Below, one piece after another: positions 13,160 through 48,523 of a DNA stretch of 64,000 nucleotides (position 1 is its first letter; every line of letters starts with the position of its first letter). This stretch comes from Candidatus Limnocylindria bacterium. Lineage in GTDB: Bacteria > Chloroflexota > Limnocylindria > QHBO01. The stretch spans positions 22,004 through 86,003 of the forward strand of contig DASTTX010000160.1 of NCBI GenBank assembly GCA_035759945.1, given 5' to 3'. The translations under genes and the position numbers were made by a program. The notes under the pieces were generated by a model. That model was not told the origin of the DNA and ran no database searches. It saw nothing but the letters and a program-made list of their open reading frames with translations.

Positions 13160-15532
13160 ATGCGCGCCGAGCGCTCGACGGACGTCCGTCCCGCTAGCAT
13201 CACGCCGATGACAACCGCCGACGTGCTCGAGGCTCCCCCACCCCGCCTCACGACCGCCGATGCCGAGGGCGTCGCCCGAACCACGTTCGGCATCGAGGCC
13301 ACCGCCGAGCCACTCGTCAGCGAGCGCGATCAGAACTTCCGGCTGACCGATGCCGCCGGCGCCGGATGGGTCCTGAAGGTCTCCAACGCTGCGGAGGACC
13401 CCGGCGTGGTGGAGATGGAGGTCGCGGCCGTCGAGCGGATCGCGCTGGTCGAACCCGGGCTGCCACTGCCGGTGGCGCGGCCCGCGCTCGACGGATCCCC
13501 GATCGCGACGACCCACATCGGTGAAACGCAGCACCTCGTGCGCCTCCTGCCGCTCCTGCCTGGCCGCAACGCCAGGCCGGGCGAGCTGGACGCCGCCAGC
13601 GTCCGCGACATCGGCGAGCTGGTGGCGCGCATCGGCCATGCATTACGTGGGTTCTTCCATCCCGCCGCAGGCAGGACGATCCTGTGGGACCAGCAGCGGC
13701 TGCCCCTTCTCTTCAAGCACAGCGCCTTGGTCGAAGCACGACCGCGTCGCGATCTCCTGGAACGAGTGCTCGAGCGCTTCCGCGACCGGGTCCTGCCGGC
13801 GCTGCCGACGCTCCGGTCACAGGTCATTCACAACGACCTGACGCTCGACAACCTCCTGGTGGACGAGGCCGGGCACGTGACGGGCGTCATCGACTTCGGC
13901 GACATGGCCCACACCGCGCTGGTGCTCGACATCCCCGCCACGCTCCAGTCGCTCGTCCGCGAGCGCGATGAAATCTTCGCCGTGGCACAGGCATTCCTGG
14001 CCGGCTATGCGTCGGTCGTGCCGCTCGAGGAGCTCGAGGTGGAGCTGCTCGGCGACCTGCTGGCCGGGCGGATGGCGCAGACGATCCTGATCAGCGCGTT
14101 TCGCACCAGGCAGTACCCGGACAACGCCTACATCCACGGCTGGGCGGAGCCGGCCTGGGTGCTGCTCGAGCAGCTCGACGCGATCGGCTTCGACGATGCC
14201 TCACGCCGGCTTGCCGCCATGGCGGCGCAGCCGATGGGCTCCTCCGTCGCGAGCGACGAGGCGCTCATCGCGCGGCGGGCCGTGCTCGGCAGCGCGCTGG
14301 AGCCGCTGAGCTATCGGCGACCGCTGCATCTGGTTCGCGGGCGCGGCGCGTGGCTGGGGGACGCCGATGGACGGCGCTACCTCGACGCCTACAACAACGT
14401 GCCCGTCGTCGGCCATGCGCACCCGAAGGTGGTCGACGCCATCGCGCGCCAGTCATCGTTGCTGAACACGAACACGCGCTACCTGCACGAGCACGTGGTC
14501 GAGCTGGCGGAGCGCATCACTGCGTCCATGCCCGACGGGCTCGACACGGTCATGTTCGTCAACTCCGGGAGCGAGGCGAACGACCTCGCCTGGCGCATCG
14601 CCTCGACGGTGACCGGCGGCGACGCCGGGCTCGTCACGGATTGGGCGTACCACGGCGTCACGGCACGGATCGCGGATTTCTCGCCGTCTGAGTGGAACGA
14701 CGGCGTGCGGCCCGATGGCGTGGAGACGTTCGCGGCACCCAACACCTACCGAGGCCCGTCCGCCGACGCTGATGACCCGCCAGCGATCGCCGCCGAGGAG
14801 ATGGGATCTGCCGTGGCGCGACTGGGCGAGCGTGGTCGGCGGCCAGCGGCGCTGTACATCGACTCGCTCTTCAGCGCCGACGGGATCTTCACGCCGGATC
14901 CTGCGGTCGTTCGAGCGCTGGTGGAGTCGGCGCGCAAGGCCGGTGCGCTGTGGGTGGCGGATGAGGTCCAGTCCGGCCACGGCCGCACCGGCGGCGGCCT
15001 GTGGGGCTTCAGCGCATGGGGCATCACGCCGGACTTCGTCACGCTCGGCAAGCCGATGGGGAACGGTTATCCGATCGCTGCGGTCGTCACCCGCTCGGAC
15101 CTCGTGGACCGGTTCGCGAAGGCGACGACGTTCTTCAGCACCTTCGGCGGCAATCCGGTGGCGTGCGCCGCGGCGCTCGCCGTGCTGGACGTGATCGAGG
15201 ACGAGGACCTGGTCGCGCGGGCAGCGACCGTCGGCGACTCGCTGCGAGGCGACCTGTCGGCGCTCGCCGACAGCCATCCGTCCATCGGCGACGTGCGCGG
15301 CCGCGGGCTGATCGCCGGCGTCGAGCTCGTGCTCGACCGCGTCACGCGGGAGCCCGATCGTGAGCTGGCCGCTCGTGTCAAGGACGAGATGCGCGAGCGC
15401 GGCGTGCTGATCGGGACGACCGGCCGCCACGGCAACGTCCTGAAGATCCGTCCCCCGCTCGCGATCACCGCCGACGAGGCAGTGATGATCCCGACCCGCC
15501 TCGGCCAGGTGCTGACGGACCTCGAGCGCTAG
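13160..15532 (+). CDS. Fusion protein: N-terminal APH/choline-kinase-like kinase domain + C-terminal class-III (PLP) aminotransferase/phospho-lyase-like domain
   Basis: Kinase Brenner motif HNDLTLDN (HxDxxxxN) and IDFGD. C-terminal GK-box TLGKPMGNG (PLP lysine), DEVQSG and class-III hallmarks. 790 aa; an alternative start is MTTADVL at 13208. Confidence 0.85.
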   Translation: MRAERSTDVRPASITPMTTADVLEAPPPRLTTADAEGVARTTFGIEATAEPLVSERDQNFRLTDAAGAGWVLKVSNAAEDPGVVEMEVAAVERIALVEPGLPLPVARPALDGSPIATTHIGETQHLVRLLPLLPGRNARPGELDAASVRDIGELVARIGHALRGFFHPAAGRTILWDQQRLPLLFKHSALVEARPRRDLLERVLERFRDRVLPALPTLRSQVIHNDLTLDNLLVDEAGHVTGVIDFGDMAHTALVLDIPATLQSLVRERDEIFAVAQAFLAGYASVVPLEELEVELLGDLLAGRMAQTILISAFRTRQYPDNAYIHGWAEPAWVLLEQLDAIGFDDASRRLAAMAAQPMGSSVASDEALIARRAVLGSALEPLSYRRPLHLVRGRGAWLGDADGRRYLDAYNNVPVVGHAHPKVVDAIARQSSLLNTNTRYLHEHVVELAERITASMPDGLDTVMFVNSGSEANDLAWRIASTVTGGDAGLVTDWAYHGVTARIADFSPSEWNDGVRPDGVETFAAPNTYRGPSADADDPPAIAAEEMGSAVARLGERGRRPAALYIDSLFSADGIFTPDPAVVRALVESARKAGALWVADEVQSGHGRTGGGLWGFSAWGITPDFVTLGKPMGNGYPIAAVVTRSDLVDRFAKATTFFSTFGGNPVACAAALAVLDVIEDEDLVARAATVGDSLRGDLSALADSHPSIGDVRGRGLIAGVELVLDRVTREPDRELAARVKDEMRERGVLIGTTGRHGNVLKIRPPLAITADEAVMIPTRLGQVLTDLER

Positions 15533-20151: not shown

Positions 20152-21030
20152 CTATCCGACCTTCTTGCCCGTCTCGTCGTAGGTGTAGAAGCCGCGTCCG
20201 GTCTTGCGCCCGAGATGTCCGGCGGTGACCATCTGGCGCAGCAGCGGCGCGGCGCGGAACTTCGGGTCGCCGAAGCCGCGGTACAGCACGTCCATGACGC
20301 CGAGCATCACGTCGTTGCCGATGAAGTCGCTCAGCTCGAGCGGTCCCATCGGATGGTTCAGGCCGAGCTTCGCGCCGGTGTCGATGTCCTCCGCCGTGCC
20401 GGTCGACTCCATGAGCGCGAACACGGCCTCGTTGATGAACGGGCCGAGCATCCGGTTCACCAGGAAGCCCGGGTAGTCCTTCGACTCGATCACCGTCTTG
20501 CCGAGCTCCTCGGCGAACGTGCGGCAGGCGTCGTAGGTCTCGTCGTCGGTCTCGAGCCCGCGGATGATCTCGATGAGGCCCATCACCGGCACGGGCGAGA
20601 AAAAGTGCAGGCCGATGAACCTCGGCGCACGGTCGGTCGCCGTGGCGAGGCCGGTGATGCTGATGCTGCTGGTATTCGAGGCGAAGATCGCGATCGGGTC
20701 CGCCGCCTTCGTCAGCGCCTCCCAGGTCTGCCGCTTGACCGATTCGTCCTCGAACACGGCCTCGATGACGATGTCGTGGCCGGCGGCGCCATCGGTCCCT
20801 TCGCTGGTGCTGACGCGTTCGAGGATCTCGTCCGCGGCCGACTGCTCGAGCTTGCCCTTGTCCACCTGTCGCTTCAGGTTGGAGCCGATGCGAGCCTTGC
20901 CCTTCTCCGCCAGCTCCGCCGTGCGGTCGGAGAGCGTCACCCGCTTGCCGGCGGCAGCGCTGACCTGGGCGATGCCGTGGCCCATCAGCCCGGCGCCGAT
21001 GACGAAAACGCGTTCGATGCTCATCGTCAT
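20152..21030 (-). CDS. hbd: 3-hydroxybutyryl-CoA dehydrogenase
   Basis: Rossmann VFVIGAGLMGHGIAQV, SNTSSISIT and the catalytic His region; the C-terminal domain is typical of the 3HCDH family. The start ATG overlaps the meaB stop (ATGA). Confidence 0.9.
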   Translation of the reverse strand: MTMSIERVFVIGAGLMGHGIAQVSAAAGKRVTLSDRTAELAEKGKARIGSNLKRQVDKGKLEQSAADEILERVSTSEGTDGAAGHDIVIEAVFEDESVKRQTWEALTKAADPIAIFASNTSSISITGLATATDRAPRFIGLHFFSPVPVMGLIEIIRGLETDDETYDACRTFAEELGKTVIESKDYPGFLVNRMLGPFINEAVFALMESTGTAEDIDTGAKLGLNHPMGPLELSDFIGNDVMLGVMDVLYRGFGDPKFRAAPLLRQMVTAGHLGRKTGRGFYTYDETGKKVG

Positions 21031-21941
21031 CCAAGCCTACCAGCGTCGAGCAGGCGTTCGGCCGCGGTGAACGGGTCGAGCTCGCGATCCGCAACGGCCT
21101 GGACCGTTGCCTCCCAGCCCGGATCAGCCTCCGCGTGCCTGGCGGCGAGGTCGGCCAGTGCGCGCCGCACCTGGCTCGCGGCGCGTTCGCGCGCCCGCAT
21201 CGGCGAGCGCGCGGTGGAGCGATGCGCCTCGATCGCGTCGACGAGTGCGGGCACGCCCTCGGCGGTCGTGGCCGTGGTCACCAGGACCGGGGGCGGCTTG
21301 CGCTCGATCCGTCCACCGGCGGTGGACAGCATGGCGCGCAGCTGCCTCGCCGCCCGATCGGCACCCGGGCGGTCACCCTTGTTCACGGCGATGATGTCGG
21401 CCACCTCGAGCAGCCCTGCCTTGATGGCCTGCACCTCGTCGCCCATCTCGGGCACCTCGACCACGACGGTCGTCTCCGCGAGCCGGGCGATCTCGACCTC
21501 CGACTGCCCCGCCCCGACCGTCTCGATCAGGATCGGGTCGAAGCCCGCCGCATCGAGCGCGGCGGCGGCGATCCAGGTCGTGGCCGCCAGCCCGCCGAGC
21601 TCACCGCGCGACGCCATGGAGCGCATGAAGACGTCGCGATCGGCGGCGTGCTCCATCATCCGGATCCGATCGCCCAGGATCGCGCCGCGTGTGTACGGCG
21701 AGCTCGGGTCGACCGCCAGGATCCCGACGCGCCTGCCACGGCCGCGCCACGCACCGATGAGCGCGTTGACCAGCGTTGACTTGCCGCTCCCTGGCGGCCC
21801 GGTGATGCCGACCACGTGGGCCCCATGCCCGGCGCTGAACAGCTCCGGCAGGAGCTCCCGAACCGATGGATCGCCGCTCTCGATCCGCGTCAGCAGCCGC
21901 GCCAGCGGTCGCCGCTGGCCGGATGCCAGCTCCGCGATCAT
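21027..21941 (-). CDS. meaB: Methylmalonyl-CoA mutase-associated G-protein chaperone MeaB/ArgK
   Basis: P-loop GITGPPGSGKST, G3 ETVGAGQSE and NKGD (NKxD) motifs. Confidence 0.9.
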   Translation of the reverse strand: MIAELASGQRRPLARLLTRIESGDPSVRELLPELFSAGHGAHVVGITGPPGSGKSTLVNALIGAWRGRGRRVGILAVDPSSPYTRGAILGDRIRMMEHAADRDVFMRSMASRGELGGLAATTWIAAAALDAAGFDPILIETVGAGQSEVEIARLAETTVVVEVPEMGDEVQAIKAGLLEVADIIAVNKGDRPGADRAARQLRAMLSTAGGRIERKPPPVLVTTATTAEGVPALVDAIEAHRSTARSPMRARERAASQVRRALADLAARHAEADPGWEATVQAVADRELDPFTAAERLLDAGRLG

Positions 21942-21950
21942 GGGCGGCTG

Positions 21951-21970
21951 CCGTATATACCGTATATACG
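21951..21970. repeat. Tandem AT-rich palindromic element CCGTATATAC-CGTATATACG between icmB-like and meaB
   Basis: Two direct copies of a 9/10-mer containing the palindrome GTATATAC sit in the 36-bp intergenic gap. Local AT content is far above the ~30% background. Confidence 0.5.
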
Positions 21971-21977
21971 CAGTCCG

Positions 21978-22394
21978 TCAGGCCCGACGCACATGCTCGC
22001 GGAAGTAGCGCGCGATCTGCCCGATGCTCGTGCCCGGCCCGAAGATCTCCGCGACGCCCGCCGCCTTCAGCTTGGTGACGTCGGCATCGGGGATGATCCC
22101 GCCCGCGGCGACGAGGACGTCGTCCATGCCCCGTTGGCGGAGGAGCTCGACGGTCCGCGGCAGCAGGGCCATGTGGGCGCCGGACAGGATCGACAGCCCG
22201 ACGACGTCGACGTCCTCCTGCTCGGCGGCATCGGCGATCATCTCCGGCGTCTGGCGCAGGCCGGTGTAGATCACCTCGAAGCCCTCGTCGCGCAGCCCGC
22301 GCGCGAGCACCTTGGCGCCGCGATCGTGCCCGTCGAGGCCGGGCTTCGCGATGAGGACGCGGATGGGCGCGTCGGTCGAGCGGTCGTTCGTCAT
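21978..22394 (-). CDS. icmB: B12-binding small subunit of an acyl-CoA mutase (isobutyryl-CoA mutase small-subunit-like)
   Basis: Cobalamin-binding domain: [15 protein letters not shown] (DxHxxG His-on motif) and GGIIP. ~138 aa from ATG at 22394. The track ORF's extra 32 aa is upstream read-through. Confidence 0.8.
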
Positions 22395-22630
22395 CGGCGG
22401 GCCGATTCTACCCGGCTCCGCGTCGGTACCTGCCATGGGGACTGGAAATCGGTGCTGATGGGAGAGCGTTAGCCGGCGGATGCGTCGCAACGGACGCCGA
22501 TCCGAGCGTCAATTGCCAGCCAACGTGTCTCAATGGCCGCATAACGTGCCGCCGAGCGCGCAGATTTCCAGTCGCGCGTCGTGACCGGTCTAACGCGCGG
22601 ATGCCGAGCAGATGTCAAGTCGAGACGACG

Positions 22631-22924
22631 TCAAGGCACCAGTCGGTCGATCTGCTCGGCGAGCTCCGTGTCGCGCGCGGTGATCGCGCCCGCCGCGTGC
22701 GTCGACAGGGTGAAGGTGACCTTCTTGTAGTCATGGATGCAGACGTCCGGGTGGTGATTGGCCGCCTCGGCGGCCCCCGCCACCTGGTTCACGAGCCGGA
22801 CCGCGGCGGTGAAGCCGCCGACCTCGACGGTCCGGGTCAGCGAGGCACCGTCGCGGCCCCACTCGGGCAGGCGCCCGAGCGCATCGGTCAGCTGGTCTTC
22901 GGTCAGTGGTTCGGCGTACGGCAT
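22631..22924 (-). CDS. Pterin-4-alpha-carbinolamine dehydratase
   Basis: 97 aa. An EWGRDGASLTRTVEVGGF-type fold with the conserved HHPD motif (AANHHPDVCI). Confidence 0.85.
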   Translation of the reverse strand: MPYAEPLTEDQLTDALGRLPEWGRDGASLTRTVEVGGFTAAVRLVNQVAGAAEAANHHPDVCIHDYKKVTFTLSTHAAGAITARDTELAEQIDRLVP

Positions 22925-22928
22925 CGCT

Positions 22929-23516
22929 CTATTGTGCGCCGCCCTTGCCGATGAGGCCCATGAACTCGGCGCGGGTCCTGGCGTCGCGCCGGAACGTTCC
23001 GGTCATGCTGGAAGTGACCATCGTCGCCTCCTGCTTCTTCACGCCACGCATCATCGTGCACAGATGCGTTGCCTCGATCACGCACGCGACGCCCTTCGGC
23101 TCGAGCTTCTCCATCAGGAAGTCGGCGACCTGGACGGTCAGCCGCTCCTGGACCTGGAGGCGCTGCGCGTACATGTCGACGATGCGCGGGATCTTCGACA
23201 GGCCGATGACCCGGCCGCGCGGCAGGTAGCCGACATGCGCCTTGCCGATGAACGGCAGCAGGTGGTGCTCGCACAGGCTGAAGAACTCGATGTCGCGCAC
23301 GACGACCATCTCGTCGTACTCGACCGCGAACGTCGCCCCGTTGATGAGACGGTCGGGGTCGACGTGGTAGCCGGCCGTCAGCTCGTCGTACATGCGCCGA
23401 ACCCGCTCGGGCGTTCGGAGCAGCCCCTCGCGGCCGGCGTCCTCGCCGATCTCGGACAGCAACGTGCGAACGGCATCCTCGAGCGATGCCCTGGTCTCCA
23501 CCATGCGCCGCATCAT
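22929..23516 (-). CDS. folE: GTP cyclohydrolase I
   Basis: Zinc/active-site Cys-His region [12 protein letters not shown], and HVGYLP and [15 protein letters not shown] motifs. ATG at 23516 (MMRRMVE). The track ORF extends 25 aa further. Confidence 0.9.
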
Positions 23517-23625
23517 AGGACCCCGGGTGGTTTGGGAGCCGATTCGGACCTGTTCGGCGCGCCCGGCCTTCGGTACACTCGAAGCGCCCATCCGACGCCT
23601 TGACGAGAGGAGGTTCGACGCCGGA

Positions 23626-24195
23626 ATGATCCTCCACCCGCCCTCGCGTCCGCGACGCCTGGCGATCCCGGGGCTGTCGGCGACCGATCGCCTCTCGAGC
23701 GCCCTGGCCCGCCGCCTGGACGACGACTATCACTGGTTCAGCCACGTCGCCTCAGGCAGCGCGGGACCGATCGATGCCGTGGTGGTGGGCCCCGGCGGCG
23801 TCTGGACGCTGACGCTGGCCGGCGAGCGCGGCCGTTTCACCCGCCGCAACACGGGCCACTGGTACCGATTCAACCGCTCGACGGAGTCCTGGGTGCCGTG
23901 GGATCCGGCGCCGATCACCGCGGCGCGGTTGGCCGCTCGCAGCCTCGCCCTGGTGCTCGAGCGCGCCGGGGTGGATGGCACGGTCGATGGGGTCCTGGTG
24001 GCGCCACCCGACATGTCGGTCGAGATCCCGCGGGGCGACGATATCGGCCTGAGGGTGGAGGCCGACCCCGATCGGCTCGGCGCCCTCGTCAGCCGGGAGG
24101 AGCGCCTGACGCTGGCGCAGGTGGATCGGATCGTGGCGCTGCTGGATCCTCGGCAGCCACTGCCTCGGCTGGCCCAGGCGACTCCGGGCGGGTGA
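23626..24195 (+). CDS. NERD (nuclease-related) domain protein
   Basis: [23 protein letters not shown] matches the NERD core (DhxxxxpxGxfvIE.K). The start is taken at the first Met outside the folE-antisense region. The 3' end overlaps the PAP2 gene convergently by ~107 nt. Confidence 0.55.
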
Positions 24196-29381: not shown

Positions 29382-29504
29382 GCCAATTCGCCACGTCGTG
29401 CGTATATGCATGACAGGGCCTGTCCAGAACCCTGCGGTAGACTGCCGCCCACCGCGAACCGGCTCACGGGTCGCGCCATGTCAACCCACTGGAGGAGATA
29501 ACCC

Positions 29505-38761: not shown

Positions 38762-38857
38762 CTGACCCGCTCCGGCCCGGTTCGTGCAACCATAAGGTTC
38801 CCGCCCTATTCCAAGTGCGCGTCCGTACCAGCGGTGCGCCGATTCCACCGGAGCACG

Positions 38858-39796
38858 ATGACAACGCCAGCCTTCACGCAGCCGCGCGACCTCCTCACCG
38901 AGCTCGAGCCCGTGGCCGAACGCCTGCTCAATCGCCACCTCGGCATAGCAAGGGAGTGGTTCCCGCACGATTACGTTCCGTACTCGCTCGGACGTGACTA
39001 CGACAAGGAGCCGTGGACGCCGGACCAGCCGCGGATCAGCGGCGTCGCGCAGATCGCGTTCGAGGTCAACCTCCTCACCGAGGACAACCTGCCCAGCTAC
39101 CACCGTGAGATCCACCGCATGTTCGGCCGTGGCGACGGACCGTGGATCAACTGGGTGAACCGATGGACCGCCGAGGAGGGACGCCACGCGATCGTGCTGC
39201 GCGACTATCTCGTGGTCACGCGAAACATCGACCCGTACGCGCTCGAGCGGTCACGCATGAACCAGCTGCAGATCGCCTACGACCACGACGACGGTGGCAA
39301 TGTCCTGCGCGGCCTCGCCTACGTCGCCTTCCAGGAGCTCGCGACGCGCATCAGCCACCGCAACACCGGCCGCTACTCCGCCGATCCGGTCGCCGATCGG
39401 ATCATGGCCCGCATCGCCGCCGACGAGAACCTCCACATGGTCTTCTACCGCGACATGCTGTCGGAGGCGATGAAGATCGATCCGTCGGCCGCCGTCCACG
39501 CCATCGCCGACGAGGTCATCGGCTTCCAGATGCCCGGCGCCGGCATGGTGAGCTTCACCCGCAAGGCGGCCCAGATGGCGAAGGCCGGGATCTATGACCT
39601 GCGTGTGCACCACGACGATGTCGTCTGGCCGCTGCTCACCCACTGGGGCATCTTCGAGCTCACCAACCTCGACGCATCGGCCGAGCTCCGTCGCGAGGAG
39701 CTGCGCCGATTCCTCGTGGACCTCGACGCGCAGGCCTCGCGCTTCGAGGCGAAGCGAGCCCTCAACCTCGAGCGCGAAGCGGCTCGGGCCGGCTAG
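38858..39796 (+). CDS. Soluble acyl-ACP (stearoyl-ACP-type) desaturase, DesA1/DesA2-like di-iron enzyme
   Basis: Two ExxH di-iron motifs (EEGRHAIVLRDYL; DENLHMVFYRD) within a ferritin-like four-helix fold. ATG at 38858 (MTTPAF). The track ORF starts 8 codons earlier. Confidence 0.85.
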   Translation: MTTPAFTQPRDLLTELEPVAERLLNRHLGIAREWFPHDYVPYSLGRDYDKEPWTPDQPRISGVAQIAFEVNLLTEDNLPSYHREIHRMFGRGDGPWINWVNRWTAEEGRHAIVLRDYLVVTRNIDPYALERSRMNQLQIAYDHDDGGNVLRGLAYVAFQELATRISHRNTGRYSADPVADRIMARIAADENLHMVFYRDMLSEAMKIDPSAAVHAIADEVIGFQMPGAGMVSFTRKAAQMAKAGIYDLRVHHDDVVWPLLTHWGIFELTNLDASAELRREELRRFLVDLDAQASRFEAKRALNLEREAARAG

Positions 39797-42003: not shown

Positions 42004-43758
42004 ATGGCTCCCATGAGTGAAGAGCAGCGCTGGCATGAGCACGAGGACTCCTGGGAGAAGGAGCGCCTCGATCCGGCGCTCGAGCGATCGCCGGAGCGCA
42101 AGGGCCGCTTCATCACGCAGTCCGGCGTCGAGATTGATCGGGTCTACACGCCCGCGGACCTGCATGATCAGGCCAACGATCCCGATGCCGGCCGACCTCG
42201 GTATCAGTTCAGCCCGTCCGCCGATGAAGCCGATGGCTGGGACGAGATCGCCGACGTCGGCCTGCCCGGTGAGCCGCCCTTCACGCGCGGCATCCATCCG
42301 ACCGGCCATCGCGGCCGCCTCTGGACGATGCGCATGTTCGCCGGCTTCGGCACGGCCGAGGACACGAACGATCGGTTCAAGAAGCTGATCGCCGCCGGCG
42401 GAACGGGGTTGAGCATCGCGTACGACATGCCGACCCTGTACGGATACGACCACGATGAGCCGATGGCCGCCGGCGAGTTCGGCACCTGCGGCGTGGCAGT
42501 GTCGAGCCTGGCCGACATGGAGATCCTGCTCGAGGGCCTGCCGGTCGGCGAGATCTCGACCTCCATGACCATCAACTCCCCCGCCGCCATGATCTGGGCG
42601 ATGTACATCGTGGCTGCCGAAAAGGCCGGCGTGCCGCGTGCGCAGCTGGCCGGCACGCTCCAGAACGACATCCTCAAGGAGTTCATTGCGCAGAAGGAGT
42701 ACATCTTCCCGCCGGCGCCCTCGCTGAAGCTCGTAACTGACACCGTCGAGTGGGGCACCCGCGAGCTCCCGCGCTGGAACACGATCTCCATCAGCGGCTA
42801 CCACATCCGCGAGGCCGGCTCGACGGCCGTGCAGGAGCTCGCATTCACCATCGCCGACGGCATCGCCTACGTCGAGGACGCCCTGGCGCGCGGCCTGCGC
42901 TTCGACGACTTCGCACCTCGCCTCTCCTTCTTCTTCAACAGCCACAACGACTTCTTCGAGGAGATCGCCAAGTTCCGTGCGTCGCGCCGGATCTGGTACA
43001 AGCTCGCCACGGAGCGCTTCGGGGCCGAGAACGAGCGGTCGACCTGGATGCGCTTCCACACCCAGACCGCCGGCGTGTCGTTGACCGCGCAGCAGCCGCT
43101 CAACAACCTCACCCGCGTCGCCATCCAGGCCCTGGCCGGTGTCCTGGGCGGGACGCAGAGCCTCCATACCGATGCGTATGACGAGGCGTGGGCCGTCCCG
43201 TCGGAAGATGCCGCGTTGCTCGCCCTGCGGCAGCAGCAGATCATCGCCGAGGAATCCGGTGCGGCGAACACGGTCGACCCGCTGGCCGGCTCCTACTTCG
43301 TCGAGACGCTCACCAACCAGACCGAGCAGGCCGCCTGGCGGTACATCGCCCAGATCGACGACATGGGCGGGATGGTCAAGGCGCTCGAGGCGGGCTACCC
43401 ACAGGCTGAGATCGCCGATGCCGCCTACGAGCAGCAGCGCGAGCTCGAGGCGCACGAGCGCGAGATCGTGGGCGTCACGAAGTACGCCGATCCCAACGAG
43501 GAGCTGCGGATCCCACTGCTGGAGATCTCGCCCGAGCAGGAGCGGCGCCACCTGGATCGCCTGTCCCGAGTCCGCGCCGGGCGGGATGCGTCAGCCCACG
43601 CGGCCGCCATGCGCCGCCTGGAGGACGAGGCGCGTCGTGGCGACGTGAACCTCATGCCCGCCATCGTCGAGGCAGTGGAGGCGTACGCCACCATCGGCGA
43701 GATGTGCGGCGTCCTGCGCCGCGTCTACGGCGAGTACAAGGAGCCGCTCGCAGTCTGA
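42004..43758 (+). CDS. icmA: Acyl-CoA mutase large (substrate-binding, TIM-barrel) subunit, isobutyryl-CoA mutase type
   Basis: Full MCM catalytic-domain homology with no B12 domain. The specificity positions read RMFAGF (Phe where MCM has RQYAGF Tyr) and IAQKEYIF (Gln where MCM has VRNTYIF Arg), the combination reported for IcmA. Confidence 0.8.
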
Positions 43759-47641: not shown

Positions 47642-48151
47642 TCAGTGAAGCTCGGGGAGGAGCTCATCCAGGCGATCCCAGGTCTCGATCGCGCCGGCGG
47701 TCATGCCGGTGGCGAGGGCGGCCTCGACCGCCTCCTCCGAGCCCATGTGGCCGACGGCCCGCATCTTGGTGCGACCGTCGCCGAGATCCTCGAGGGTCAG
47801 CGTCTCCGGCCCGCCCTGCGGCCCGACGCCGGGGACATCGAACATGAACGTCCACTTGATGCGCTCCGGCTCGACGACCTCGAGGTACTCGCCGTAGAAG
47901 GCGAACTCGTTGCCCGACTCGTCGGTACTCACCCAGCGCCACTTCCCGCCGGGACGGAGGTCGAGGTCGACGACGCGGGTGGTATGCCCGCGCGGTCCCC
48001 ACCAGCGAGGAATGAGGTCGGCGTCGGTGTTGGCGCGCCAGACGAGCTCGCGCGGCGCGTCGAAGATCCGTTCATACGTGAGGTCGCCGCCTTCCGAGTA
48101 GATGGTGGTCGTGTCGCTGCTGCCTCGGTCAATCCTGGTCGCGGTCATCAT
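47642..48151 (-). CDS. SRPBCC superfamily protein, AHSA1 (activator of Hsp90 ATPase homolog)-like
   Basis: ~165 aa with the pattern YERIFDAPRELVWRANTDADLIPRWWGP...GGKWRW, typical of AHSA1/SRPBCC. It overlaps the arsR 3' end by 23 nt. Confidence 0.75.
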   Translation of the reverse strand: MMTATRIDRGSSDTTTIYSEGGDLTYERIFDAPRELVWRANTDADLIPRWWGPRGHTTRVVDLDLRPGGKWRWVSTDESGNEFAFYGEYLEVVEPERIKWTFMFDVPGVGPQGGPETLTLEDLGDGRTKMRAVGHMGSEEAVEAALATGMTAGAIETWDRLDELLPELH

Positions 48152-48503
48152 CGGCTCCCTTCTGGCTCTCCTGGTTGGACTGGACGTCGCGCAGGAACTG
48201 GTCGAGCCGTTCGAAGCGCTCCTCCCAGTGCGGTCGGTACTGTCCGACCCACTCGGCCACGTCCCTCAACGGTCCTGCAGTCAGCCGCCGCGGTCGCCAC
48301 TGCGCATGCCGGCCGCGCTCGATGAGCCCGGCGCGCTCCAGGACGCGAAGGTGCTTGCTGATCGCGGGCTGGCTGAGCTCGAACGGGGCGGCCAGCTCGG
48401 TCACGGACGCCTCCCCGCGCGACAGGCGCGCAAGGATCGTTCGCCTCGTGGGATCGGCGAGCGCGGCGAAGGTGACGCTGAGCGCATCGGTTTGCCTGTC
48501 CAT
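48129..48503 (-). CDS. arsR: ArsR/SmtB family transcriptional regulator
   Basis: ATG at 48503 gives MDRQTDALSVTFAALADPTRRTILARLSRGEASVTELAAPFELSQPAISKHLRVLERAGLIE, a canonical ArsR winged-HTH. The longer track ORF upstream is non-coding read-through. Confidence 0.85.
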   Translation of the reverse strand: MDRQTDALSVTFAALADPTRRTILARLSRGEASVTELAAPFELSQPAISKHLRVLERAGLIERGRHAQWRPRRLTAGPLRDVAEWVGQYRPHWEERFERLDQFLRDVQSNQESQKGADDDRDQD

Positions 48504-48511
48504 TGCTGCTA

Positions 48512-48523
48512 GGTTATATAACC
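48512..48523. promoter_or_regulatory. Perfect 12-bp palindrome GGTTATATAACC immediately upstream of arsR start; candidate ArsR operator / divergent promoter element
   Basis: It sits 9 bp upstream of the arsR ATG, inside a 57-bp AT-rich divergent intergenic region (arsR<- ->5'-3' exonuclease). Confidence 0.5.

Follow-up and report, generated by a model that had tools for sequence, protein, structure and literature searches.

In Actinobacteria, MIRUs occur at about 40 loci as direct, often tandem, repeats of 40–100 bp, and in Proteobacteria, REP and BIME elements are short hairpin palindromes within operons, often a few nucleotides from a stop codon, that influence how neighbouring genes are translated or what becomes of their mRNA. 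G-proteins of the MeaB type load acyl-CoA mutases with their B12 cofactor and protect it, and to our knowledge it is not known, outside the fused IcmF enzymes, how cells set the ratio of this chaperone to the mutase subunit. Here, we describe a short AT-rich inverted repeat in the gap between an icmB-like gene and meaB in a metagenome-assembled genome (MAG) of Candidatus Limnocylindria (Chloroflexota). The DNA analysed is a stretch of 64,000 nucleotides (assembly GCA_035759945.1, contig DASTTX010000160.1, positions 22,004 to 86,003), hereafter the window, to which all coordinates refer. A first-pass annotation of the window, made from the sequence letters, had drawn attention to this junction.

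A published review reports that the hand-over of ribosomes by termination–reinitiation includes backward movement to an upstream AUG, that structure just 3′ of the upstream stop codon lowers coupling, and that short open reading frames (ORFs) can deliver ribosomes to a downstream gene, MIRUs being a natural case (PMC12548453). On comparative grounds, the junction described here is judged to hold a real, selected cis element that varies these known themes of coupling and intercistronic insertion. Our best explanation, held tentatively and at a little less than an even chance, is that it would act as an AU-rich RNA hairpin plus a rare-codon brake within a translated relay spacer, gating translational coupling from icmB to meaB.

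The inverted repeat at the icmB–meaB junction

The icmB-like gene and meaB both lie on the minus strand. The former (22395..21978; PF02310, 95 bits), for the B12-binding small subunit of a split acyl-CoA mutase, ends in TGA at 21980-21978, and meaB (21941..21027; PF03308, 281 bits; TIGR00750, 304 bits, above cutoff), for the G-protein chaperone of B12 mutases, begins after exactly 36 nt (21977..21942), the gap length that the first-pass annotation had given. The spacer is in frame with both genes and reads, on the mRNA strand, TGA cggactg CGTATAT acggt ATATACG gcagccgccc ATG, with stop, arms and start in capitals; on the plus strand, 21951-21970 is CCGTATATACCGTATATACG. The 5′ arm CGTATAT thus occupies 21964..21970, the loop ACGGT 21959..21963, and the 3′ arm ATATACG, which ends 10 nt 5′ of the meaB ATG, 21952..21958 (all on the minus strand).

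The GC content of the window is 0.66–0.75, and the 17-mer and the gapped form GTATAT-N2-7-ATATAC are each found once in it versus 0.00 expected from shuffles; the element is real and non-random. Two exact GTATATAC octamers lie 9 bp apart, and with at most one mismatch there are three matches in the window against 0.83 expected. The earlier description of a tandem palindromic element was correct for the sequence, but the conserved unit is different: the tandem form is present in some lineages only, its appearance in the window being a by-product of the particular loop there, and was rejected in favour of a single inverted repeat with a 4–5 nt loop, CGTATAT-N4-5-ATATACG.

Orthologous junctions were collected with a MeaB query against a genome collection, which returned 80 loci (L numbers below; 73–99% identity), nearly all from Candidatus Limnocylindria or other Chloroflexota MAGs and including one from the same species as the window (L001). 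The palindrome was found in 12 of the 80 loci, always at the junction and nowhere else in their approximately 9 kb. Metagenome and assembly look-ups added four further canonical copies (L126, L201, L203 and L211). Absence from orthologous icmB–meaB junctions had been named beforehand as part of the result that would count against the element; it is present there in 16 distinct lineages. The element-bearing junctions were aligned in two sets, A2 (13 junctions) and A3 (16 canonical rows among 22 junctions).

All 14 arm positions are invariant across the 13 junctions, and the arms are equally constant in the 16 canonical rows of A3. Fourfold-degenerate sites of meaB in the same 13 loci have a mean pairwise identity of 52%, with only 3 of 126 columns invariant. 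Because the arms stay fixed amid saturated synonymous sites, the sequence comparison argues that they are under strong purifying selection. The loop is not conserved (ACGGT, CGGGC, ATGT, ACAT, CGCG, CCGT and others in A3), and its length, like its sequence, differs by lineage, being 4 nt in eight canonical rows and 5 nt in the other eight. The 5′ flank varies freely and the 3′ flank is partly conserved. In canonical copies, the arms lie 7–8 nt from the icmB stop and 9–10 nt from the meaB start, the arm-to-ATG distance being the best conserved spacing. Spacers are 36 nt long in 14 loci, 39 in three and 34 in three, and in two sub-classes the length is held at 36, a 1-nt indel in the loop being offset by another in the 5′ flank.

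Predicted hairpin, relay ORF and proposed translational coupling

The first-pass annotation had predicted an AU-rich hairpin on the mRNA, and RNA folding bears this out, with the same hairpin predicted for every canonical spacer (stop-to-start RNAs at -11 to -18 kcal/mol). In the window, the 33-nt spacer RNA has a minimum free energy (MFE) of -13.9 kcal/mol (z = -2.74), and the full predicted stem-loop spans 21947..21974(-), where the AU-rich core is flanked by a CUGC–GCAG pairing that leaves one G bulged. The predicted stem consists of seven invariant pairs and one to three variable outer pairs, closed by the 4–5 nt loop. The outer pair 14–34 is G-C in nine junctions, G·U in two, A-U in one and unpaired in one, and pair 13–35 is C-G, G-C, G·U or A-U. 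The resulting covariation score was 0.113 versus 0.070 in shuffles, and was equalled or passed in 10 of 500 of them. Locus L006 carries a compensated C-G pair within the core, a symmetric double change.

The hairpin had also been placed at the meaB ribosome-binding region, and here the prediction fails: there is no Shine–Dalgarno (SD) sequence upstream of meaB to occlude in the element-bearing loci, the stem stops 9–10 nt 5′ of the AUG, and most MFE folds leave the bases around the AUG unpaired. No Rfam family matched the junction (at gathering score or E<=10) or the 12 related loci. A scan of 21000-23200 for intrinsic terminators found 0 sites, the stem being AU-rich and followed by GCAGCCGCCC, and a scan of the junction region found no promoter-like site.

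The spacer is instead crossed by a short relay ORF. In the window, it runs from 21994 to 21938 on the minus strand, its ATG formed by a His codon CAT plus G, 14 nt 5′ of the icmB stop, and its TGA overlapping the meaB ATG as ATGA. Such an ORF, of 9–35 codons, is found in 27 of the 29 spacer-bearing junctions examined, with spacers of 22–93 nt and palindrome-free alleles included. Its start coincides with the icmB stop or lies next to it, and its own stop falls either on the meaB start codon (xTGA) or 8 nt into meaB; these signals covary perfectly with spacer length modulo 3. With spacers of 34, 58, 40 or 22 nt, an RTGA overlapping the icmB stop provides the start and an xTGA overlapping the meaB start provides the stop. 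With spacers of 36, 60 or 93 nt and RTGA, the start again lies on the icmB stop and the TGA is supplied by meaB codons 3–4 (GAT-GAG or GGT-GAG). With spacers of 36 or 39 nt lacking RTGA (the window, L001, L201, L210 and L211), the start is the CAT+G ATG 14 nt before the stop and the relay stop is xTGA on the meaB start.

Codon choice at the positions that build these signals departs from the usage of the genome. The final icmB codon is ACA, TCA, CCA or GCA, which make up 2.7%, 4.8%, 8% and 7% of their respective families. All 12 loci that rely on the stop at +8 encode Asp by GAT (27% of Asp codons), and His is CAT (30% of His codons) in five of five loci without RTGA and in 0 of 17 with it. 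Where a spacer has arisen at this junction, selection appears to have rebuilt the relay ORF each time, and the relay ORFs are direct comparative evidence that termination–reinitiation coupling is strongly selected in uncultured Chloroflexota.

Across the spacer classes, the palindrome is read in three different frames, and each frame yields the rarest codons of the genome (AUA 1, GUA 5 and UAU 29 among 9,226); the window's relay ORF contains two AUA codons. Since the frame differs by class, there is no conserved relay peptide, and sensing of a leader peptide at the peptide level was rejected on this ground. The suggestion of a translational attenuator that sets the ratio of chaperone to subunit survives in part: the evidence favours a translational role, but the proposed mechanism hinges on the relay ORF and not on occlusion of a ribosome-binding site.

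We propose the following sequence of events. Because meaB has no SD and no promoter of its own, its translation would rely solely on ribosomes handed on from icmB. A ribosome terminating at the icmB UGA would meet the hairpin 7–8 nt on, which by an estimate from general ribosome footprints is just past its leading edge, and could not drift forward. Ribosomes that re-initiate at the relay start, an ATG or GTG over the stop in most lineages and the ATG 14 nt upstream in the window's lineage, would pass. While elongating, they would unwind the weak stem, decode two to four of the rarest codons (AUA, GUA, UAU), terminate on the meaB start codon or 8 nt inside it, and re-initiate there. Hairpin and rare codons together would act as a brake, so that the output of MeaB, and of the coupled hbd and acd, would be a fixed, reduced fraction of IcmB. 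This scheme presumes that the modelled hairpin forms in vivo, that the structure lowers rather than raises coupling, and that no trans-acting factor is required. If it is right, the junction would be a compact, purely cis-encoded solution to setting chaperone output in a GC-rich bacterium with leaderless mRNAs, built from a relay ORF, a weak hairpin and near-unused codons.

Several observations weigh against this reading. The hairpin has decayed in L207, L213, L210 and L005/L204, where spacer and relay ORF are kept (L207 lacks the 5′ arm, L213 both arms, and L210 and L005/L204 the inner pairs), which implies that the hairpin is dispensable. The inner seven pairs vary in no canonical copy, neither covarying nor showing G·U; since pure structural constraint predicts change there, something may read the sequence itself. 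The fold z-scores are modest (-1.3 to -2.7), and the meaB start codon is outside the stem. Finally, the same 8-bp arms are found at two further Limnocylindria loci, L175 and L149, which suggests that one trans-acting reader serves these loci or that the copies have a common mobile origin, and speaks against a solution particular to this junction.

Junction alleles, alternative readings and genomic context

At L175 (1052-1092, minus strand), the palindrome is extended to CGCGTATATACGTATATACGCG and separates moxR from a DUF58 gene; the relay ORF there ends in ATGA, and the DUF58 protein is 88–90% identical to named Limnocylindria proteins. At L149 (598-617), it lies 9 nt 3′ of a VWA-domain gene on a Limnocylindria-type contig, the VWA protein being 91% identical to its match. 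No similarity beyond the palindrome was found between copies at different loci, and a search of relatives by way of N-terminal extensions of DUF58 homologues found no moxR–DUF58 palindrome. A metagenome pattern scan returned at least 120 loci, most of them chance matches in AT-rich DNA; among the matches listed, only about 15 were GC-rich, in heterogeneous contexts. Also seen were stems almost identical to the element, GCGTATAT-GGGTC-ATATACGG, at L171 (636-700) and L101 (about 830-900), each 12 nt 3′ of an in-frame TGA within a gene of thioredoxin fold that reads ...GTW[TGA]PHC... (a TW-U-PHC redoxin) on an unrelated GC-rich contig; by sequence, this stem looks like the SECIS element of a selenoprotein.

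The sites of the palindrome so far are thus icmB–meaB, moxR–DUF58 and the position after the VWA gene, two of them being NTPase-chaperone operons. An unlikely but broader interpretation is that the palindrome represents an undescribed family of Chloroflexota operon-junction elements, namely sequence-specific AU-rich stem-loops within relay ORFs at ATGA/GTGA overlaps, either mobilized in the manner of MIRU/REP or recognized in trans by a dedicated factor, binding RNA or DNA, that sets the stoichiometry of chaperone and partner.

Among the rival explanations, a DNA operator survives best, and we consider it possible but improbable. A dimeric regulator would bind CGTATAT-N4-5-ATATACG and, by a roadblock or by repression of an internal promoter, uncouple meaB-hbd-acd from icmB; copies elsewhere would form its regulon. 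Invariant half-sites in 16 lineages around a free spacer are a classic operator signature, the same arms recur at the other Limnocylindria loci, and L005/L204/L210 hold the outer CGTAT...ATACG at unchanged spacing. Experiments in Caulobacter and Sphingobium have, moreover, defined palindromes with CGTATATACG as the operators of VapB1 and DesX, respectively (PMC5389673; bioRxiv 10.1101/2020.07.27.224295). The dimeric operator proposed in the first-pass annotation is nevertheless weakened by the 1-bp differences in half-site spacing among lineages, by the G·U (G...T) asymmetry of the outer pair in two lineages with A-U in a sister lineage, and by the symmetric double change of L006. The site lies within an operon, directly after a stop codon and not at a promoter. 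No regulator gene is nearby, though one may lie farther away, and the synteny mem-PAP2-orf-folE-pcd-icmB-meaB-hbd-acd-acs is identical with or without the element. No further full or half sites were found in about 0.69 Mb of Limnocylindria DNA around the locus. ECF-type (extracytoplasmic function) -10 elements (CGTATA) were rejected by eye, as no suitably spaced AAC -35 exists in the conserved 3′ end of icmB. Zur, Fur, ArsR, NtcA and NrdR boxes do not fit in geometry, and no claim is made for them.

The related cores that the first-pass annotation had listed at 48512, 29395 and 38788 as sites of one regulator family do exist, but they are different sequences without the motif, and we rejected the grouping. 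The first, GGTTATATAACC at 48512-48523, is a perfect palindrome on the -10 (TAACCT) of a leaderless ArsR/HTH_20 gene (48503..48129(-)) that is followed by an AHSA1/SRPBCC gene, and from its position it is probably the ArsR-family regulator's own autoregulatory operator. The second, GCGTATATGCATG at 29400-29412, resembles a lone half-site and lies in the region 5′ of an opuAC-type gene, and the third, AACCATAAGGTT at 38788-38799, is an imperfect palindrome that is unrelated to the element and precedes a desaturase gene. Within that fatty-acid desaturase gene (38834-39796(+), acyl-ACP-type), Rfam reports an antisense match to the small RNA family ASdes (39176-39243(-), 55.8 bits, E 1.8e-10), which may reflect conservation of the desaturase coding sequence.

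The evolution of the junction bears on a further rival, which we regard as rather unlikely: a selfish or neutral MIRU-/REP-like palindromic insert that landed on and duplicated an ancestral ATGA/GTGA overlap and is tolerated through the relay ORF, with no host function. Most orthologous junctions have no spacer, the stop and start overlapping by 4 nt (GTGA or ATGA) or nearly abutting, and many spacers have RTGA at each end. Different hairpin-forming inserts, each again with a relay ORF, are seen in other junction alleles, and the relay ORF at moxR–DUF58 also ends in ATGA. For MIRUs, insertion at start codons has been described, together with an ORF coupled at a spacing of -4 (PMC12548453). Loci with the element are scattered in neighbour-joining trees of MeaB and of four concatenated proteins; as these trees are star-like, our claims are restricted to this patchiness and to the robust close pairing of the window with L002. 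The decay of the element in some lineages also accords with an insert of this kind. However, the 5′ flank and loop are near-neutral and the arms are 100% conserved in orthologous spacers, which requires selection on the arms. In addition, copies at different loci are alike in the palindrome only, no conserved flanking tetranucleotide or transposase was seen, and the element has a single copy in the 64-kb window and none among the flanking sequences of about 90 loci.

The window and L002 are approximately 97% identical over 9 kb except in a 375-nt patch at about 21665-22040 (-100 to +275 around the meaB start), where identity falls to 62–83% and L002 has a different, GC-rich hairpin spacer. As the divergence is confined to this patch, the alleles appear to have been exchanged by local recombination; L001 and L013, which belong to one MAG, also differ in their junction alleles. 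Sequence comparison therefore identifies the icmB–meaB junction as a hotspot of recombination and allele replacement, and movement of a junction allele by local recombination between near-identical genomes fits a self-contained cis-acting module.

Other variation was recorded at these loci. Long spacers of 110–350 nt, with folds down to -100 kcal/mol or lower, were found in L007, L009, L010, L025, L038, L040, L045, L061, L078, L202 and L208. They share recurring GCCAA-N5-6-TTGGC palindromes and a (T/G)ATCGGTCA(C/T)A motif, and Rfam has no match in these long structured spacers. In L018, L047, L065, L067 and L071, the GTGAC(C/T)GA stop-start overlap is duplicated in short tandem, and these duplications suggest how junction spacers arise. 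The meaB–hbd intergenic region of L030 (about 900-1250 of the locus) holds, in the raw sequence, four copies of a TTTGCG-N6-8-(C/T)GCA(A/C)A-like palindrome 5′ of hbd. These resemble the TTTGCAAA boxes of short-chain acyl-CoA regulators (ScfR/PccR/RamB).

An internal promoter is highly unlikely. Under this explanation, the 3′ arm would supply a -10-like hexamer (TACGNN) 7–8 nt 5′ of the meaB start for a leaderless meaB transcript, with the palindrome as a regulatory overlay. The genome does place TAnnnT 6–10 nt upstream of about 25 starts, the arm-to-ATG distance is the best conserved spacing, and TACGCT or TACGTT is found at 7–8 nt in 8 of 22 junctions, including L210/L211 and L207, where only the 3′ arm is left. 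Yet the critical last T is C or G in the other 14 of the 22, the window among them (TACGGC at 8 nt), the AT-rich core lies at -13 to -30 and not at -7 to -12, and the scan mentioned above found no promoter-like site. The conserved 5′ arm, the pairing and the relay ORF would also be left unexplained. Recoding is scarcely credible: a hairpin 7 nt after UGA-C, in a geometry like that of read-through and SECIS stimulators and with a near-identical stem as the apparent SECIS of the TW-U-PHC redoxin gene, would drive read-through or selenocysteine insertion to give an IcmB-linker-MeaB fusion like the N-terminal two thirds of IcmF. The 17 loci with spacers of 36 or 39 nt do keep icmB and meaB in one frame, a single TGA apart, and indels that offset each other hold the length of 36. 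However, spacers of 34 and 58 nt break the frame, neither the loop nor the in-frame peptide is conserved, the peptide would need AUA codons, and the in-frame bias of spacers is not significant across all loci or after collapsing lineages.

The mutase large subunit is encoded at 42004-43758(+), 20 kb from icmB (PF01642), and has RMFAGFG and AQKEY where methylmalonyl-CoA mutase has RQYAGF and VRNTY. Phe/Gln in place of the Tyr/Arg of methylmalonyl-CoA mutase marks the large subunit of isobutyryl-CoA mutase, and the label icmB-like is reasonable because the large subunit has Phe/Gln at these diagnostic positions. A single TGA and 12 sense codons separate icmB and meaB in the same frame, and the order of B12 domain then MeaB is that of the fused IcmF. 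Genes for 3-hydroxyacyl-CoA dehydrogenase, acyl-CoA dehydrogenase, acyl-CoA synthetase and thiolase follow 3′ of meaB; the meaB stop overlaps the hbd start (ATGA), hbd and acd abut, and the only long gap within the operon, 5′ of the synthetase gene, contains the SD GGAGA. Divergently from folE runs an ORF of 267 aa (23392-24195(+)) that is kept in nearly all 80 loci (44–99% identity) and has no match in Pfam or NCBIfam.

Upstream, a TAGAAT -10 element lies 10 nt 5′ of the icmB ATG (22405..22410(-)); icmB-meaB-hbd-acd is probably transcribed from it as one leaderless or near-leaderless mRNA. Nearly all orthologous loci keep the start context TAGAAT-N10-ATG, and the longer TAGAATCGG (or CATAATCGG), 9–10 nt 5′ of the icmB ATG (22402-22410(-) in the window), is almost invariant in nearly all 80. 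In many loci, the TAG or TAA of this motif is the stop codon of the upstream pterin-4a-carbinolamine dehydratase gene. Across the window, TAnnnT hexamers, mostly TAGNNT, lie 6–10 nt (mode 7) 5′ of about 25 start codons of long ORFs with high third-position GC, for example at 13195, 26821, 32254, 37476, 41968(-), 53417, 54092 and 22410(-). This pattern suggests that the Limnocylindria genome makes heavy use of leaderless or near-leaderless mRNAs.

Comparison with described systems

REP and BIME elements are GC-rich, number tens to hundreds of copies and have a conserved GTAG head and cognate RAYT transposases; none of these features was found in the DNA sampled, where the palindrome has one copy in 64 kb and no conserved flank. 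Should the palindrome prove dispersed, no earlier MIRU/REP-like operon-junction element would have been described for Chloroflexota. The CGTATATACG operators of VapB1 (Caulobacter crescentus) and of DesX (IR-DA, Sphingobium SYK-6) share the same core palindrome and likewise belong to GC-rich genomes; however, they overlap the -10 of a first-gene promoter and have fixed geometry, whereas the element here is intra-operonic, has a variable spacer and lacks an adjacent regulator.

The dependence of expression on an almost unused codon recalls UUA and bldA in Streptomyces, the codon here being AUA (1/9,226). In contrast to that system, the rare codons lie in a non-conserved relay peptide and not in the regulated protein, and a regulatory role of tRNA-Ile2 would be pure inference.

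Coupling by RNA unfolding and re-initiation, as in MS2/fr coat-lysis, rpmI-rplT and short delivery ORFs, resembles the coupling we prefer for icmB and meaB, in that an intercistronic structure ties downstream to upstream translation. It differs in that SD or start-codon sequestration by the hairpin is not found here: there is no SD, the stem ends 9–10 nt before the AUG, and a rare-codon relay cistron is interposed. Unlike MIRUs, the element is a 19–21 nt inverted repeat in a 34–39 nt spacer, of low copy number in the DNA sampled and conserved in its palindrome only. It shares with them an intercistronic insert whose short ORF overlaps the flanking stop and start so that coupling survives (PMC12548453), an arrangement seen here in 27 of 29 spacers and at moxR–DUF58.

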